Of a stretch of 64,000 nucleotides of DNA, positions 17,819 through 21,491 are shown in pieces. The stretch covers positions 304,581 to 368,580 of the forward strand of contig BQJC01000004.1 in assembly GCA_021604505.1 (NCBI GenBank), read 5' to 3'. The first letter of the stretch is position 1; each line of letters begins with the position of its first letter. The notes under the pieces were generated by a model. That model was given only the letters and a program-made list of their open reading frames with translations, did no database searches and was not told where the DNA came from. This DNA comes from Nitrospinaceae bacterium. GTDB taxonomy: Bacteria; Nitrospinota; Nitrospinia; Nitrospinales; VA-1. The position numbers and the translations under genes were made by a program.

Positions 17819-18232
17819 TTATTTTTTTTCAAACAGGGCATCCAGAATTGGGCATTCTGGTACAACTCCCCCTTCACATTGCGAAGAAATTTTAGCCAAT
17901 ATCTTTTCGAGTTTTTTTAAATCCACAATCTTTCGGCGAATATCTCCCAGATGATGAATTGTGATTTTTTGCACCTGATCGCAGGTGTTATCGCCTCTAT
18001 CGACCAACTTCAAGAGCGCGCGAATTTCTTCAAGTGAAAAACCCAAGTCCCTACCACGACGGATAAAAACAAGCCGCTTAATGTGGTTTTCGCTATAAAT
18101 CCGGTGTCCCCCCTCAGTTCTAGGGGGCTTCGGGAATATAGCAATCTTTTCATAGTAGCGGATGGTCTCAATCTTACAGTGAGTAAGATCGGATAAAACC
18201 CCGATGGTAAATTTTTTTTCTCTATTTTGCAT
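17819..18232 (-). CDS. MerR family heavy-metal-responsive transcriptional regulator (three-cysteine type)
   Basis: The N-terminal HTH is FTIGVLSDLTHCKIETIRYYEKI. There is a coiled-coil dimerisation helix. By my count the cysteines are C84, C119 and C127 (..DNTCDQV.. and ..SSQCEGGVVPECPIL), spaced much like Hg/Cd/Pb-sensing MerR proteins. Confidence 0.85.
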   Translation of the reverse strand: MQNREKKFTIGVLSDLTHCKIETIRYYEKIAIFPKPPRTEGGHRIYSENHIKRLVFIRRGRDLGFSLEEIRALLKLVDRGDNTCDQVQKITIHHLGDIRRKIVDLKKLEKILAKISSQCEGGVVPECPILDALFEKK

Positions 18233-18240
18233 AATAGCCC

Positions 18241-18271
18241 TTGAACCTGTAGTTGCTACAGGTTGTACATT
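18241..18271 (+). promoter_or_regulatory. MerR-type promoter: TTGAAC -35, 19-nt spacer containing a 9-bp perfect inverted repeat, TACATT -10
   Basis: TTGAAC is at 18241-18246 and TACATT at 18266-18271. AACCTGTAG (18244-18252) and CTACAGGTT (18256-18264) are exact reverse complements separated by 3 nt. The element lies between the divergent merR-like gene and the DUF169 gene. Confidence 0.6.
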
Positions 18272-18322
18272 ATAAACGAAAAAATGCTTGATGGAAAATG
18301 ACTATAAAACCGGGAGAGGATC

Positions 18323-19033
18323 ATGGACAAAACACAGATCAATCAAGAAATCGTGTCGGCATTTAAGCTTGCCCTCCCTCCAGTAGCAATGGCCTTCGTC
18401 GATAAACAACCGAACGGGGTGAACACCATTGAGGGTGAATTCCCCTCGTTTTGTACCTTTTGGCGTCTGGCTGAAGAAAAAGTGTTCTATGCATCGGCGG
18501 ATAAACACTATAACTGTCCCATAGGAGCCATGATATTAGGGATAGAGATGCCCAAAGAGGTACAGGAAGAACTGGGTGGTTTGGTTGAAAAAATGTGTGA
18601 ATGTTCGTACCTGTCCGAGGATGAACCGGCAAATATCCCCACACTTTCTAAAAAGATGAGCGGTGTCGTTTATGGCCCATTGAAAGGCTTTCCGGTGGAA
18701 CCTGAATTGGTCATGATGTGGCTGAAACCTTCACAGGCAATGATCTACAACGAGGTTTTGGGGTGCTGTAAATGGTCGGAAAGCATGCAGTCAATGGCTC
18801 TGGGCCGCCCCGCTTGCGCAGTGATCCCAACCACCCTGAACCAATCGCCGTTTGGCATGTCACTCGGTTGTACTGGAATGCGTACCTTCACCGAAATCAG
18901 TGATGACCATATTCTGGCAACCCTTAACTATAAAGAGATAAATTCATTTCTGGCGAACCTTGAAACTACCGTACGTGCCAACAAGCAAATGAAAGATTTT
19001 TATACGGATCATAAAAATAAAATCACTGGCTAA
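18323..19033 (+). CDS. DUF169 (COG2043)-like protein
   Basis: 236 aa with a GGGAGAGGA RBS. Its pattern is PPVAMAFV...FCTFWRLA...NCPIGAMILG...PELVMMWLKPSQAMIYNE...RPACAV...LGCTGMRTFT. This matches my memory of DUF169. It contains a vicinal CC (LGCCKW). Confidence 0.65.
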   Translation: MDKTQINQEIVSAFKLALPPVAMAFVDKQPNGVNTIEGEFPSFCTFWRLAEEKVFYASADKHYNCPIGAMILGIEMPKEVQEELGGLVEKMCECSYLSEDEPANIPTLSKKMSGVVYGPLKGFPVEPELVMMWLKPSQAMIYNEVLGCCKWSESMQSMALGRPACAVIPTTLNQSPFGMSLGCTGMRTFTEISDDHILATLNYKEINSFLANLETTVRANKQMKDFYTDHKNKITG

Positions 19034-19091
19034 ATACGATCCGCTCGTTAGAGGTAAATTAATTGAAACTTTTTATAAAGGGAGAAATATT

Positions 19092-19361
19092 ATGCCAAAG
19101 AGAAAAGTTGAAGTTTTTACAAGCGGTTGTCCAATTTGTGAGTCCACTGTGAATCTTGTTAAAAGGCTAACTTGTCCATCGTGCGAAGTAATTATTTATA
19201 ATTTAACCGATGACCGTAAAAAGGAAGTCTTGGAAAATGCGACCATTTATGGAATCGAAAGGGTTCCCGCCGTTGCGGTGGATGGAAAGCTATTGGAATG
19301 CTGTGCAAAGAATTCCGTTTCTGAAAATATTTTAAAACAGGCAGGGGTTGGAAGCGCCTAA
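19092..19361 (+). CDS. Small thioredoxin-fold protein (glutaredoxin/Thioredoxin_3-like)
   Basis: 89 aa with a GGGAG RBS. It has the redox motif SGCPIC, a second CPSC, a cis-Pro context RVPAVAVDG and a vicinal CC (LECCAK). Confidence 0.7.
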   Translation: MPKRKVEVFTSGCPICESTVNLVKRLTCPSCEVIIYNLTDDRKKEVLENATIYGIERVPAVAVDGKLLECCAKNSVSENILKQAGVGSA

Positions 19362-19389
19362 AGTTTAATCCTGTTTGAAAGTTTTTCCA

Positions 19390-20022
19390 ATGTCATTTAT
19401 TTACATGAAAATCCTCGAGTCCCGTCCTGAGCGATATGATTTAGGGATGGGTCTGTTGACTCTGGGATCGTTGACAAAAATTAAACGTCAAATTGCTGAC
19501 CATACACTTCCCGAAAACCGAGTCCTCGATTTGGGCTGCGGGACCGGGACCTTGGCGCAAATGTGCATTGAACGAGGGGCATGGGTGACAGGGGTTGATG
19601 CCAACAGCGGCATGCTTGAAGTGGCAAAGAGAAATTCTCCTTCCGCGAATTTTCTTAACATCAGCCTCAGCAATCTTGATGACCATTTGGAAGATGAATC
19701 TTTCGATATCATTTTAAGCACGCTTGCATTTAGTGAACTGACCCGCGCAGAAAGACTTCATGTATTAAAACAAATCAAAAGAATTTTGAAAAGCGGAGGA
19801 AAAGTTATTATCGGTGACGAAATCATTCCGGAAAATTTATTAGCCCGGTGCTTTTACTATGCCTTCAGATTACCCATGCAGCTTATTACGTGGATAATGA
19901 CCCAGAATACCACCAACGCGATTTCCAATTTTGAAGATGATGTGCGGCAGTCGGGCATGGAAATCGTCAACCGCAAGCCGTTTATGATGGGCATGTTTAT
20001 CCTTCTGGAAATAAAAAAATGA
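19390..20022 (+). CDS. Class I SAM-dependent methyltransferase
   Basis: SAM motif I VLDLGCGTGTLA, motif II-like FDIILS and motif III-like LKSGGKVIIGD are present. The start is ambiguous (TTG 19375, ATG 19390 or ATG 19405). The stop overlaps the next start as ATGA. Confidence 0.8.
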   Translation: MSFIYMKILESRPERYDLGMGLLTLGSLTKIKRQIADHTLPENRVLDLGCGTGTLAQMCIERGAWVTGVDANSGMLEVAKRNSPSANFLNISLSNLDDHLEDESFDIILSTLAFSELTRAERLHVLKQIKRILKSGGKVIIGDEIIPENLLARCFYYAFRLPMQLITWIMTQNTTNAISNFEDDVRQSGMEIVNRKPFMMGMFILLEIKK

Positions 20023-20888
20023 TCGGTTGGATTAAAGATATCTATCAAACGCTGTTTCGGTTTGCCCGGTTTCCGTGTGAACCCGAAACAATTGCCATTG
20101 GTAATCCCGACAAATCCTCTCCTGTCCTCGTCACATGCAATTTTGATTACACGGTCAGACATCTAAAGAATTATTTGGAAAAAGAGCAAATAGATTGCTT
20201 TCTTTTGGTGGTCAATACCAAAGGCACCAACGTCTGGTGCGCGGCGGCTGAAGGTATTTTTACCACCGAAACGGTCCTGGCCCATTTAAAGGTCTATAAT
20301 GTAAGGGAGTTGGTTGATCACACGCGTTTGATACTTCCGCAATTGTCTGTGGCCGGGGTGAAAAGAAAGGACCTCAAAGAACATGGCTGGGAAGGAATTT
20401 ACGGTCCCGTTTACTTTACCGATTTAAAGGAATTTATAAATAACCGTTTTACTAAAACCAGGGACATGCAGGCTTTAGAATATGGCTATTGGGAGCGTTT
20501 TAAAATGGGTCTCAGCCATGCGGTTTTCTGCACGTTGGTCTGTATCCTTCCAATTTTTCTTTTTGCTTCTGATTGGTGGCTTCAGGCCATCATTTTAGTC
20601 TGGTACTTTGCTTTCAGCATGCAATTGATTGAACATTTCATTCCCATTGATAGATTACTGTATAAAGGGCTGATCCTCACTCTGCCGATCCTGGCACTGG
20701 TATTGTCTTATTCAAACCAGCTCGTTGTAAATATCCAGGCATCGGTCGGGATCATTGCCCTGGGTGCTTATATTGGATTCGATGCCCAAGGTCATTCGCA
20801 TCTCGGACAAAACCAGCATTCAGGGAAATTGACTGCCGGGATTTTTGCATTTTTGGCTTTATTTTATGGAGGTTCCTTGTTGCTATGA
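20019..20888 (+). CDS. HgcA-like corrinoid-binding membrane protein
   Basis: 289 aa. The soluble N-half carries PVLVTCNF, the cap-helix-like NTKGTNVWCAAAEG (Cys codon at 20238-20240), RLILPQLSVAGV and YGPV. The C-half has about 5 hydrophobic helices. This is the HgcA architecture. Confidence 0.8.
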   Translation: MIGWIKDIYQTLFRFARFPCEPETIAIGNPDKSSPVLVTCNFDYTVRHLKNYLEKEQIDCFLLVVNTKGTNVWCAAAEGIFTTETVLAHLKVYNVRELVDHTRLILPQLSVAGVKRKDLKEHGWEGIYGPVYFTDLKEFINNRFTKTRDMQALEYGYWERFKMGLSHAVFCTLVCILPIFLFASDWWLQAIILVWYFAFSMQLIEHFIPIDRLLYKGLILTLPILALVLSYSNQLVVNIQASVGIIALGAYIGFDAQGHSHLGQNQHSGKLTAGIFAFLALFYGGSLLL

Positions 20889-21073
20889 AAAAGTTCGTGG
20901 ATTGGGACAAGATAGAGGAGGAAACATGTTCCGCAGAGGAAGCCTGTGAATGCACGAGAAGCAAATTGCAGTCACTGATTGATTTCGTGGTGGAATTATT
21001 TCCCAAGAAAAAAGAATCACCTTGTTGTGATGAAATGAATAAAATTGAAAAAGGCCAATGCAATGACAAATAA
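20885..21073 (+). CDS. Hypothetical 62-aa Cys-rich acidic protein
   Basis: The start overlaps the HgcA-like stop as ATGA. The protein contains CSAEEACEC, a vicinal PCC and GQC. There is no ferredoxin motif. Coding status is unproven. Confidence 0.45.
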   Translation: MKKFVDWDKIEEETCSAEEACECTRSKLQSLIDFVVELFPKKKESPCCDEMNKIEKGQCNDK

Positions 21074-21491
21074 CCTCTCAATCCCGGCTAAGACGGTAGT
21101 CACTTCCATTTGTCCCACCTGTGGTTGTTCACTGGTAAGGTTGGGAATCGGAGCGGATCGATGGGCTAAGACCACTTATCAAGGGAAGGAGTATTTCTTT
21201 TGTTGCCAGGGATGCGCCGACCTGTTTAATCAGGACCCGCCTAAACACCTCTTGGAAACCCAGGAGTTGGTGGTGTGTCCGACCTGTTTGGCGGAAAAAC
21301 CGGTGCAGTGGACCGTGCGCATGGAAATTGCCGGATGGGAAGTGTTTTTTTGCCGGTGTCCCTATTGCCCGGAAGTATTTCGAAAGGACCCGGATCATTA
21401 CGTCAAGCGTCTACAAGGTGAGATCACCTATGAAGGTGTGTTCGGTCAAACAGGGTGTTGTCCCACGGACACTTCGGGAACCAGCGAGTGA
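21063..21491 (+). CDS. Double YHS/TRASH-like metal-binding domain protein
   Basis: It has two repeats of CPTC...(Y/V)FFC.xxC..(L/V)F..DP..(H/Y). These are CPTCGC...YFFCCQGCADLFNQDP and CPTCLAE...VFFCRCPYCPEVFRKDP. The C-terminal tail is GCCPTD. An alternative TTG start is at 21045. Confidence 0.6.
   Translation: MTNNLSIPAKTVVTSICPTCGCSLVRLGIGADRWAKTTYQGKEYFFCCQGCADLFNQDPPKHLLETQELVVCPTCLAEKPVQWTVRMEIAGWEVFFCRCPYCPEVFRKDPDHYVKRLQGEITYEGVFGQTGCCPTDTSGTSE

Follow-up and report, generated by a model that had tools for sequence, protein, structure and literature searches.

The 64-kb stretch of DNA that we analysed (the window) carries a block of six tightly packed plus-strand genes at 18323-21491, faced by a divergent merR gene on the minus strand (17819-18232). 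Reading coordinates and junctions directly from the sequence, we found all seven ORFs where an earlier note on this DNA had placed them, with ATGA overlaps at 20019 and 20885 and gaps of 13-58 bp at the remaining junctions. The features are:

17819-18232, minus strand: divergent type-1 metal-sensor regulator of the MerR family, 137 aa (PF09278, PF13411, PF00376)
18242-18272, plus strand: MerR-type promoter/operator (read directly from the sequence)
18323-19033, plus strand: DUF169 protein, 236 aa (PF02596, E 7e-24)
19092-19361, plus strand: small thioredoxin-fold protein, 89 aa, an optional cassette member (Thioredoxin_3 / Glutaredoxin)
19390-20022, plus strand: CpaM, corrinoid protein-associated SAM methyltransferase (NF043040)
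20019-20888, plus strand: 289-aa HgcA-like corrinoid membrane protein lacking a ferredoxin tail (PF03599 CdhD, NF043039)
20885-21073, plus strand: Cys-rich protein, 62 aa (conservation; no family)
21063-21491, plus strand: tandem YHS/TRASH-type Cys-rich metal-binding protein (PF04945)

The called methyltransferase ORF opens at TTG 19375 and the longest ORF for the YHS protein at TTG 21045. Orthologs of the methyltransferase open at ATG 19390, and ortholog lengths point to 21063 for the YHS protein; because ortholog lengths fit, 19390 and 21063 are likely to be the true starts. The operon is AT-richer than its neighbours, as the earlier note had remarked (GC content 0.41-0.46, versus 0.50-0.55 in ligA and htrA), although the dip is modest, since two further 2-kb bins of the window are as low. 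Purifying selection acts on all seven genes: in three comparisons, dN/dS ranged from 0.03 to 0.22 (0.03-0.09 for CpaM, 0.05-0.10 for the regulator, 0.07-0.13 for the YHS protein and 0.11-0.22 for the 62-aa protein). The operon is flanked by ligA and htrA, an arrangement seen in none of the ~165 other loci that we fetched.

Relation to the published Nitrospina cassette

What we see here is not new: a Nitrospina-type "HgcA-like" cassette has been published (Gionfriddo et al. 2016; Villar et al. 2020; Tada et al. 2020/2021/2026; Lin et al. 2023), and the locus is a typical example of it. A protein from a Nitrospinaceae MAG matches its 289-aa protein with 100% identity, and ~54 close homologs of ~289 aa, mostly marine, were retrieved. 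We found the gene order of the cassette in 11 genome loci and ~45 metagenome loci; dozens of loci keep it, the most distant at 58% identity. The protein family (58-100% identity, 289 aa), the MerR, DUF169, UbiE-type methyltransferase and YHS neighbours, and the absence of an adjacent hgcB all agree with the published cluster; nothing essential sets this copy apart, which lies between ligA and htrA and includes the optional thioredoxin-fold gene. Hence, the suggestion in the earlier note that this wiring had not been characterised goes too far; it holds for the biochemistry alone, as that note itself had said. Villar et al. (bioRxiv 10.1101/648329) drew the neighbourhood with MerR1, a UbiE methyltransferase, DUF169 and YHS, and proposed that Hg induces expression, with MerR as the trigger; Lin et al. 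2023 (PMC10083202) reported that a neighbouring hgcB is absent in all Nitrospina; and NCBIfam names the methyltransferase CpaM and the nearest relatives of the corrinoid protein "HgcAB-like fusion protein". To the published picture we add the clade placement, the pairing with CpaM, the promoter and its dyad, the three sensor Cys residues and the evidence of purifying selection.

The corrinoid protein and its methyltransferase partner

The 289-aa protein matches PF03599 (CdhD; E 1.6e-16), and its AlphaFold2 model (pLDDT 90.7) comprises a Rossmann domain and five TM helices (157-182, 184-203, 213-231, 235-259 and 269-287), as the earlier note had estimated. The best Foldseek match of the model is the HgcAB model 9a0b_A, and homolog alignments show an NVWCA cap helix with an invariant Cys74. 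The protein shares with HgcA (Parks et al. 2013; NF040863/NF040864) a CFeSP-type corrinoid domain, the cap-helix Cys and five TM helices, together with the presumed chemistry of methyl transfer from cobalt to a soft metal. Nevertheless, it is not a true HgcA: it is only ~24% identical, scores 137 bits against NF040863 (cut-off 275), reads CAA(A/V)E where HgcA has N(V/I)WCA(A/G)GK, with GK replaced by (A/V)E, and falls outside the HgcA clade, within a clade of CpaM-linked fused proteins (98% bootstrap). The label "HgcA-like" should therefore not be taken to mean HgcA. The earlier note had itself named a place outside the HgcA clade, with no corrinoid binding, as an outcome that would speak against its idea; the placement is indeed of that kind, but the corrinoid-binding half of the objection does not apply, because neither the corrinoid domain nor the cap-helix Cys has been lost. 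Compared with the CFeSP large subunit AcsC/CdhE (PDB 2H9A, 4DJD), the corrinoid Rossmann domain superimposes at 1.4-1.9 A over ~128 residues with 30-34% identity, but the protein has Cys74 aligned with the cap-helix Thr of CFeSP, lacks the [4Fe-4S] N-domain and the TIM-barrel partner, and is membrane-anchored.

A motif scan of the window found neither a GMTCxxC nor an ECGAC motif, and the only ORF with CX2CX2CX3C encodes an SdhB-like protein beside sdhA (11379-12323), in agreement with the earlier note that HgcB is missing. Another difference from true hgcAB loci, which have no dedicated SAM methyltransferase, is the presence of one here. This protein is CpaM (NF043040, 252 bits; cut-off 180) with the SAM motif LDLGCGTG; its next-best matches are arsenite and tellurite methyltransferases.

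We scored 68 loci outside the Nitrospina type, from 10+ phyla, for which the HgcA-like ORF was obtained. In 67 of the 68, a CpaM homolog adjoins the HgcA(B)-like gene or forms a fusion with it; it lies ~0.4-1.3 kb upstream, or shares one ORF with that gene, except at L040 and L061, where it is elsewhere, and at L056, which has none. True CpaM-corrinoid fusions were confirmed at L016, L041, L062 and L047. We conclude that the conserved core of the operon is CpaM plus a membrane-anchored corrinoid protein with an HgcA-type cap-helix Cys, a pair conserved, sometimes as one polypeptide, across bacteria and archaea.

The Nitrospina protein shares its clade (98% bootstrap), upstream CpaM, NVWCA cap helix and order of corrinoid domain then TM domain with the HgcAB-like fusions (NF043039), the "fused hgcAB" of Podar 2015 and Gilmour 2018. 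Elsewhere, however, the corrinoid partner of CpaM normally has a 2x[4Fe-4S] ferredoxin at its C-terminus, together with a Cys-rich tail; in the Nitrospina version the fifth TM helix replaces them. The protein matches positions 1-228 of the 350 in the NF043039 profile and stays below its equivalog cut-off (232 versus 285 bits). MerR is an extra partner in the Nitrospina type, which has also gained DUF169, the 62-aa CxC/CC protein, the tandem YHS/TRASH protein and, sometimes, the CxxC thioredoxin-fold protein.

Accessory proteins, regulator and promoter

DUF169 is found in all Nitrospina-type loci, and in four soil-type loci it lies upstream of CpaM and a fused HgcAB-like gene. C44, H62, C65, C165 and C183 are invariant among 64 homologs; searching the PDB for folds similar to the AlphaFold2 model (pLDDT 91.8) returned no match with E < 0.1. 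The thioredoxin-fold protein scores 26.6 bits on Thioredoxin_3 (cut-off 24.8), also matches Glutaredoxin, and has GCPIC, CPSC and ECC motifs conserved among orthologs; the gene is missing from about half of the orthologous cassettes (e.g. L001/L004 and L099). Although family profile searches gave no match for the 62-aa protein, its ORF is a real gene judging by sequence conservation: the ACECTRSK core and CC pair are conserved, and it is kept in >40 loci, among them all full-length Nitrospina-type cassettes. In the YHS protein, Pfam scores only the first half (PF04945, E 1e-13), yet the two halves align with 33% identity (E 6e-6); it ends in a C-terminal GCC, and all its Cys motifs are conserved. 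The descriptions that the earlier note had given of the DUF169, thioredoxin-fold, methyltransferase, 62-aa Cys-rich and double YHS/TRASH proteins are borne out.

The best NCBIfam model for the regulator is that of Hg-MerR (TIGR02051), at 120 bits against a cut-off of 150.85, followed by CadR/PbrR and CueR (114 bits each), with ZntR almost equal. Its metal specificity is not readable from sequence, since it falls below every NCBIfam equivalog cut-off. Cys84, Cys119 and Cys127 occupy MerR-like positions and are invariant among orthologs. Some other loci have a second, co-directional MerR paralog with three Cys in Tn501-like 35/9 spacing, which also scores best on the Hg-MerR model.

The operon promoter has a -35 element TTGAAC and a -10 element TACATT separated by a 19-bp spacer that holds a perfect dyad, ACCTGTAG-TTG-CTACAGGT, at 18245-18263. 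The dyad, -35 element and spacing are kept with 1-2 substitutions in L001/L004, L003, L006, L007 and L008. On the minus strand, TTTCCA-17-TATAAT at 18297-18269 is a candidate promoter for the divergent merR gene. An over-long 19-bp spacer with a central perfect dyad is how metal-activated MerR promoters are built and, with the three conserved Cys, indicates that the operon is very probably controlled by a thiophilic-metal MerR, as the earlier note had supposed. The divergent regulator, the promoter with its 19-bp spacer and dyad, and the three-Cys sensor with C-x34-C between the first two all recall the mer operon of Tn501/Tn21. In contrast to that operon, the regulator falls below the MerR equivalog cut-off, its C119-x7-C127 sensor loop is shorter by one residue, and merT, merP, merA and merB are absent from the locus, the window scan being motif-based and hence weaker for merA and merB.

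Candidate functions

The earlier note proposed a corrinoid-dependent methyl-transfer module that has a methyltransferase of its own, here SAM-dependent, alongside Cys-rich accessory proteins, and such a core is plausible. We favour, with moderate confidence, metal-induced methyl transfer from SAM via cobalt to a soft metal(loid). Binding of a thiophilic divalent metal to the regulator would switch the operon on. CpaM would transfer the methyl group of SAM to the corrinoid protein's cobalt in its reduced state (we infer this direction of flow), and the methyl group would pass to a soft metal(loid) brought by the Cys-rich proteins, which may do the work of the missing Cys-rich tail; the methylated product would leave at the membrane. 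In the absence of HgcB, cobalt might be re-reduced by SAM-driven reductive methylation, the route by which MetH is reactivated. Against methyl transfer, the ferredoxin for cobalt re-reduction is absent, the host lives aerobically or microaerophilically and, according to passages in bioRxiv 10.1101/648329 and PMC10083202 that cite such experiments, the fused-clade members tested made no methylmercury in vivo. Nor need the metal context mirror the ancestral function, as it is confined to the Nitrospina type and the closest relatives of that type: most fused-clade loci have a TetR regulator (17 loci) or lack metal-related neighbours altogether. As a best guess, Hg(II) is the leading candidate metal; Cd, Pb and Zn are also possible.

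A specific case of this explanation is a genuine mercury methylase, as hypothesised by Villar, Tada and Gionfriddo: Hg(II) would induce the operon via MerR and the HgcA-like protein would make methylmercury in oxic or suboxic seawater. The intact corrinoid domain and cap-helix Cys, the preference of both regulator types for the Hg-MerR model with three Cys each, Cys-rich partners that could pass on Hg(II), and the correlation of MeHg with gene abundance in several ocean surveys are consistent with this. We nevertheless consider it possible but doubtful, given the placement outside HgcA, the score far below the HgcA equivalog cut-off, the replaced GK, the absence of HgcB and the cited negative tests of fused relatives. 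Moreover, answering Hg with a product that is more toxic still would be an odd resistance strategy unless that product is exported.

Those same negative tests would fit a system in which Hg is not the physiological substrate and another soft metal(loid) (As, Sb, Bi, Se, Te, Pb or Sn) is methylated for inducible detoxification or volatilisation. The near-equal regulator scores for MerR, CadR/PbrR, CueR and ZntR, the sensor loop unlike that of Tn501 MerR, the next-best matches of CpaM and a weak match of the thioredoxin-fold protein to the MTH895/ArsE family point the same way. However, CpaM resembles arsenite methyltransferases no more than class I methyltransferases do in general (42-47 bits; cut-offs 263-575), ArsM methylates nucleophilic metalloids directly, making a corrinoid relay unnecessary, and no three-Cys MerR sensor is known for oxyanions. 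This reading seems unlikely to us.

Most CpaM-HgcAB-like loci in other phyla have no metal-related neighbours, and the TetR regulators found at 17 of them belong to a family that typically senses small organic ligands. The CpaM-corrinoid pair might then act on an organic or membrane substrate or in corrinoid handling, with MerR and the Cys-rich proteins answering thiol, redox or metal stress indirectly. The family is widespread among organisms without known metal methylation, and one DUF169-CpaM-HgcAB-like locus lies amid radical SAM/B12-binding, NRPS and aminotransferase genes. We judge this improbable for the Nitrospina type, in which four of the seven genes encode Cys-rich or metal-binding proteins and the regulator has a metal-sensor Cys triad; the nearest fused relatives also have two further Cys-rich proteins upstream. 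In addition, the Cys axial ligand is the feature reportedly proposed by Parks et al. (2013) to promote transfer of a methyl group onto an electrophilic metal.

Finally, a decaying remnant, inactivated by loss of the ferredoxin domain and carried passively, might be suggested by the missing tail and by a DDE transposase that interrupts one copy (L005), but is effectively refuted by the selection on all seven genes, and the conserved gene order and operator, together with the transcripts from Villar et al. that a passage of PMC12874090 cites for the cassette, likewise speak for a working system.

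Gene content and setting of the cassette

All seven ORFs that the earlier note had drawn, a merR gene divergent from a six-gene operon, are present at the coordinates listed here, and an HMM search of each ORF against curated families (Pfam, NCBIfam) gave the following assignments.

Genes of the cassette
17819-18232, minus strand: MerR family regulator, 137 aa; PF13411, PF00376 and PF09278 all above cut-offs
18323-19033, plus strand: DUF169 protein, 236 aa; PF02596, E = 7e-24
19092-19361, plus strand: thioredoxin/glutaredoxin-fold protein with GCPIC, 89 aa
19375/19390-20022, plus strand: class I SAM methyltransferase (CpaM, corrinoid protein-associated methyltransferase), 215/210 aa; NF043040
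20019-20888, plus strand: CdhD-family corrinoid protein, HgcA-like, 289 aa
20885-21073, plus strand: Cys-rich ORF, 62 aa; matches no family
21045/21063-21491, plus strand: YHS protein, 148/142 aa

ATGA overlaps join the methyltransferase gene, whose stop overlaps the hgcA-like start, to the corrinoid gene, and the corrinoid gene to the 62-aa ORF. Within the YHS protein, one half is homologous to the other (E = 6e-6), in keeping with its description as a double YHS protein, and all seven genes are under purifying selection (dN/dS 0.03-0.22). By its sequence, this locus is the Nitrospina HgcA-like cluster that is already known. A hypothetical protein from a Nitrospinaceae MAG has the same sequence as the 289-aa protein, and ~54 close homologs, most of them in marine metagenomes, are equally long. 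Villar et al. (bioRxiv 10.1101/648329) drew the Nitrospina HgcA-like context with MerR1, a UbiE methyltransferase, DUF169 and YHS, and NCBIfam models already existed for the methyltransferase (CpaM, NF043040) and for the nearest relatives of the corrinoid protein ("HgcAB-like fusion protein", NF043039). A literature search for CpaM or corrinoid protein-associated methyltransferase found no paper, the matches being unrelated CPAM acronyms.

The cassette is indeed AT-richer than its neighbours (GC 0.41-0.46, versus 0.50-0.55 in ligA and htrA), but the dip is not unique in the window, since two other 2-kb bins have equally low GC (4001-6000, 0.427; 48001-50000, 0.436). At the cassette borders we found neither notable flanking repeats, direct or inverted, nor insertion scars, and the window holds no tRNA. 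The chromosomal site of the cassette varies between genomes, with ligA and htrA flanking it in none of ~165 other loci; only these differing flanks in other genomes suggest that the cassette may be mobile. In the window it lies directly in front of the essential gene ligA, which starts 30 bp past the merR stop codon on the same strand (17788-17819), so that merR transcription could read into ligA.

The HgcA-like protein and its partner CpaM

The absence of HgcB that the earlier note reported was borne out: the operon encodes no ferredoxin, the one protein with CX2CX2CX3C in the 64-kb window is SdhB-like, and neither an HgcB signature nor an HMA (GMTCxxC) motif occurs there. The operon also has no merT, merP or merA, and none of its proteins matched a mer family by HMM; for merA and merB the rest of the window was scanned by motif alone. 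Lin et al. 2023 (PMC10083202) likewise reported that a neighbouring hgcB is missing in all Nitrospina, and that function is unconfirmed. By contrast, the loci of true hgcA that we used as controls (L168, L169) have a separate hgcB and no methyltransferase.

We rejected the possibility that the window protein is HgcA proper, since it scores below the equivalog cut-off, lies outside the true-HgcA clade and has no adjacent hgcB. On the HgcA equivalog model NF040863 it reaches 137 bits against a cut-off of 275, and orthologs in two other loci reach 130 (L012) and 183 bits (L013). Its top match is the HgcAB-like model NF043039, with a score of 232 bits that covers positions 1-228 of the 350 in the profile and is below the full-length cut-off of 285; positions 229-350 and the CX2CX2CX3C motif are absent because the protein lacks the ferredoxin part. 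For the phylogeny that the earlier note had called for, we used proteins named HgcA and others named HgcAB-like by NCBI. In an unrooted neighbour-joining tree of the corrinoid and TM domains (283 columns, 200 bootstraps), true HgcA was split with 98% bootstrap from the unfused Nitrospina-type proteins plus the fused ones, so that the 289-aa protein falls outside the HgcA clade. Its identity is 33.5% with fused proteins, against 24.5% with true HgcA. A tree of the corrinoid domain alone (123 columns), with corrinoid iron-sulfur protein (CFeSP) as outgroup, recovered the Nitrospina type as monophyletic (98%) and grouped with the fused clade, with weak deep support (37%). This placement agrees with that of Lin et al. 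2023 (PMC10083202), in which Nitrospina-like sequences grouped with the fused-hgcAB clade. The trees place the window protein as a member of the CpaM-linked HgcAB-like clade, and "HgcA-like" is to be read in that sense. Compared with the fused proteins, it has an extra TM helix in place of the ferredoxin and Cys-rich tail.

The corrinoid machinery of the 289-aa protein is predicted to be intact. An AlphaFold2 model (pLDDT 90.7) has a Rossmann-type corrinoid domain, a short NVWCAA helix (residues 72-77) and the five TM helices that had been anticipated, and it most closely resembles 9a0b_A, a published HgcAB model, followed by CFeSP corrinoid domains (1.4-1.9 Å). The cap helix reads NVWCAAAEG in the window protein, NVWCAAGGGHFT in fused proteins and NVWCAAGKGTFG in true HgcA. 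Relative to the HgcA motif N(V/I)WCA(A/G)GK, the window protein has NVWCAA, including Cys74, with AE in place of GK, where every named HgcA sequence has G(K/A/E)G. All 62 sequences compared share an unchanged NVWCA, and Cys74 aligns with a Thr of the CFeSP cap helix.

The methyltransferase scores 252 bits on the CpaM model NF043040, above the cut-off of 180. Outside the Nitrospina type we surveyed 69 loci from reference genomes, of which 67 had a scorable HgcA-like ORF, together with the Nitrospira-type locus L013; they span Planctomycetota, Chloroflexota, Desulfobacterota, Acidobacteriota, Myxococcota, Bacteroidota, Asgard archaea and Bathyarchaeia. A CpaM homolog is present in every scorable locus except L056 (67/68), mostly ~0.4-1.3 kb upstream of the HgcA-like gene and on the same strand. 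In five loci CpaM and the HgcA(B)-like protein are encoded by one ORF (L016:6260-8065, L041:609-2393, L062:6263-7849, L047:6257-7921 and L058), the hosts being Promethearchaeota, Heimdallarchaeota, Anaerolineales and Poribacteria. The Promethearchaeota locus L016 encodes a triple CpaM-HgcA-ferredoxin fusion with both NCBIfam models above their cut-offs; in L041 and L062, CpaM above its cut-off is joined to an HgcA-like part just under the HgcAB-like cut-off, and the CpaM part of the L047 fusion is weaker. Natural fusions of this kind argue strongly that the two proteins act together. Across this survey, the conserved partner of the HgcA-like protein is CpaM, a SAM methyltransferase, and not HgcB.

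A basal locus, L170:3001-4833, has three separate genes, for a CpaM-like methyltransferase, an unfused HgcA and a small ferredoxin. The HgcA of this locus (P0250) and the CpaM-fused L062 protein group on the true-HgcA side of the tree (98%). The tree positions of L170 and L062 hint that linkage to CpaM may have arisen before true HgcA and the fused proteins diverged.

Regulator and accessory genes

Promoters activated by metal-bound MerR proteins, such as Tn501 merR/merT, copA (CueR) and zntA (ZntR), have a 19-20 bp spacer that contains a dyad. In the intergenic region of the cassette we read a promoter with TTGAAC and TACATT separated by a 19-bp spacer, within which lies a perfect 8-3-8 dyad, ACCTGTAG-TTG-CTACAGGT. 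The dyad, the -35 element and the spacing are kept in five independent loci. Consensus scans for terminators and promoters gave matches at background level, and we used them only to point out a candidate merR promoter. Cys84, Cys119 and Cys127 of the regulator are invariant in all orthologs, giving the metal-sensor pattern of one Cys at the start of the dimerisation helix and two in the C-terminal loop. The sensor cysteines of Tn501 MerR are C82/C117/C126, and CueR has Ser77 at the first position; a Cys at that position argues for a divalent thiophilic metal and against Cu(I). The window regulator scores below the cut-off of each equivalog model (MerR, 120 versus 151; CadR, 114 versus 151; CueR, 114 versus 147; ZntR, 106 versus 143), so the sensed metal cannot be named. 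The cysteines and the promoter layout, both of the metal-sensor type, favour the earlier proposal of control by a soft-metal-sensing MerR.

A co-directional, type-2 MerR paralog replaces the divergent regulator in L002:4996-5406, L005:2501-2911, L011 and L094-L107. It scores ~75-84 bits against the window MerR, has three Cys with the 35/9 spacing of Tn501, and scores best on the Hg-MerR model (132, versus a cut-off of 151). In L111-L113 the regulator is at yet other positions. Upstream of CpaM in 17 fused-type loci (L018, L019, L030, L034, L036, L038, L041, L048 and 9 others) the conserved neighbour is a TetR-family regulator; the core pair is thus regulated differently from one lineage to another.

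The synteny survey proposed in the earlier note found that the cassette recurs across Nitrospina-type loci. Every Nitrospina-type locus of sufficient length, from genomes and metagenomes alike, has MerR, DUF169, the 62-aa protein and YHS alongside the pair, and the thioredoxin-fold gene, present in about half, is optional. Across the loci compared, this metal-related periphery is specific to the Nitrospina type. The 12 closest fused relatives (L017, L020, L022, L033, L037, L046, L050, L060, L063, L067, L071 and L075) have two Cys-rich proteins upstream of CpaM, always together, ~1.0-1.6 kb before the HgcAB-like gene. One of the two is a membrane protein in which a TM helix contains GCCGSP and the C-terminal end carries CECRECQP, and the other has CGSLTC; neither matched a Pfam or NCBIfam family, the MerT/CopZ selenoprotein match being non-significant (E = 0.06). 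The 17 fused loci with a TetR gene are different ones, and have that gene in place of these two.

The DUF169 protein has four Cys and one His that are invariant in 64 homologs, and was modelled with high confidence (AlphaFold2, pLDDT 91.8). It had no sequence match in the PDB and no Foldseek match with E below 0.1, and we found nothing functional in the literature that mentions DUF169. Homologs of ~50% identity stand alone in many soil contigs. In four distinct soil-type metagenome loci (L082/L083:5001-7764, L143, L144 and L162), DUF169 immediately precedes CpaM and a fused HgcAB-like gene on the upstream side, and ~14 further loci with a DUF169 of this subfamily lack the pair; the association thus recurs without being obligate. 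In L082, B12-binding radical SAM, NRPS and aminotransferase genes flank the trio. In a single case, L169:4912-5733, a remote DUF169-family gene adjoins true hgcA-hgcB. We considered and rejected a general link between the DUF169 and HgcA families, since the L169 member matches the subfamily profile only remotely (E = 0.04) and DUF169 is found in 0 of 67 fused loci; we take the L169 adjacency as anecdotal.

In L005:4387-6018, on a 4.6-Mb MAG chromosome labelled Nitrospirales, a cassette 83% identical to that of the window is split by a DDE transposase gene between a truncated thioredoxin-fold gene and cpaM. The Nitrospirales label suggests that either the cassette has spread beyond Nitrospinota by transfer or the MAG is taxonomically mislabelled. 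A Nitrospina-type cassette with 84% identity is on L003 (JANXFM010000024.1, 3.6 kb), a contig binned as Flavobacteriales, probably through a binning error.

Proposed function

The "hgcA" signal of many ocean metagenomes is dominated by Nitrospina-type hgcA-like genes, and these are widely taken as evidence for methylmercury production in oxic or suboxic seawater; hence, whether the protein methylates mercury matters. In papers from 2025 and 2026, Nitrospina still counts as no more than a potential methylator that has neither an isolate nor any biochemistry, and we found no experimental test of methylmercury formation by a Nitrospina-type protein in the literature up to 2026. The window adds no new kind of system, and its interest lies in this biochemical question. 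The earlier note's interpretation, a metal-sensing MerR switching on a corrinoid-dependent methyl-transfer module, is reasonable, but it had been published as a hypothesis by Villar et al. and so is not new.

As read from the DNA, the cassette has a metal-sensor promoter of the MerR type, a conserved SAM methyltransferase/corrinoid pair and Cys-rich accessory proteins. In the mechanism that we propose, metal binding to the MerR-family regulator would turn on the operon, CpaM would use SAM to methylate the reduced cobalt, and the resulting Cys-on methyl-corrinoid would donate its methyl group to a soft metal(loid) that the Cys-rich proteins present. As both inducer and substrate, Hg(II) is the foremost candidate. 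Against Hg(II), the window protein falls short of HgcA in model score and tree position, and its placement in the HgcAB-like clade matters here: passages of bioRxiv 10.1101/648329 and PMC10083202 cite fused relatives, the only HgcAB-like members tested so far, as negative for Hg methylation.

A broader reading, which we consider possible but unlikely, is that CpaM and the HgcA(B)-like protein form a second, widespread, SAM-fed system for corrinoid-dependent metal(loid) methylation, evolutionarily apart from HgcAB. The Nitrospina version would then be oxygen-tolerant, metal-inducible and ferredoxin-free, with free-standing Cys-rich proteins (62-aa, YHS and DUF169) replacing the HgcB-like tail. 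Should the cassette produce methylmercury, or some other methylated metal, in oxic seawater, open-ocean methylmercury would be explained and HgcB would be shown to be dispensable. The metal-sensor promoter is sufficiently well defined and conserved to be directly usable in a reporter assay, and the proper unit for heterologous tests is the complete seven-gene cassette rather than hgcA alone.
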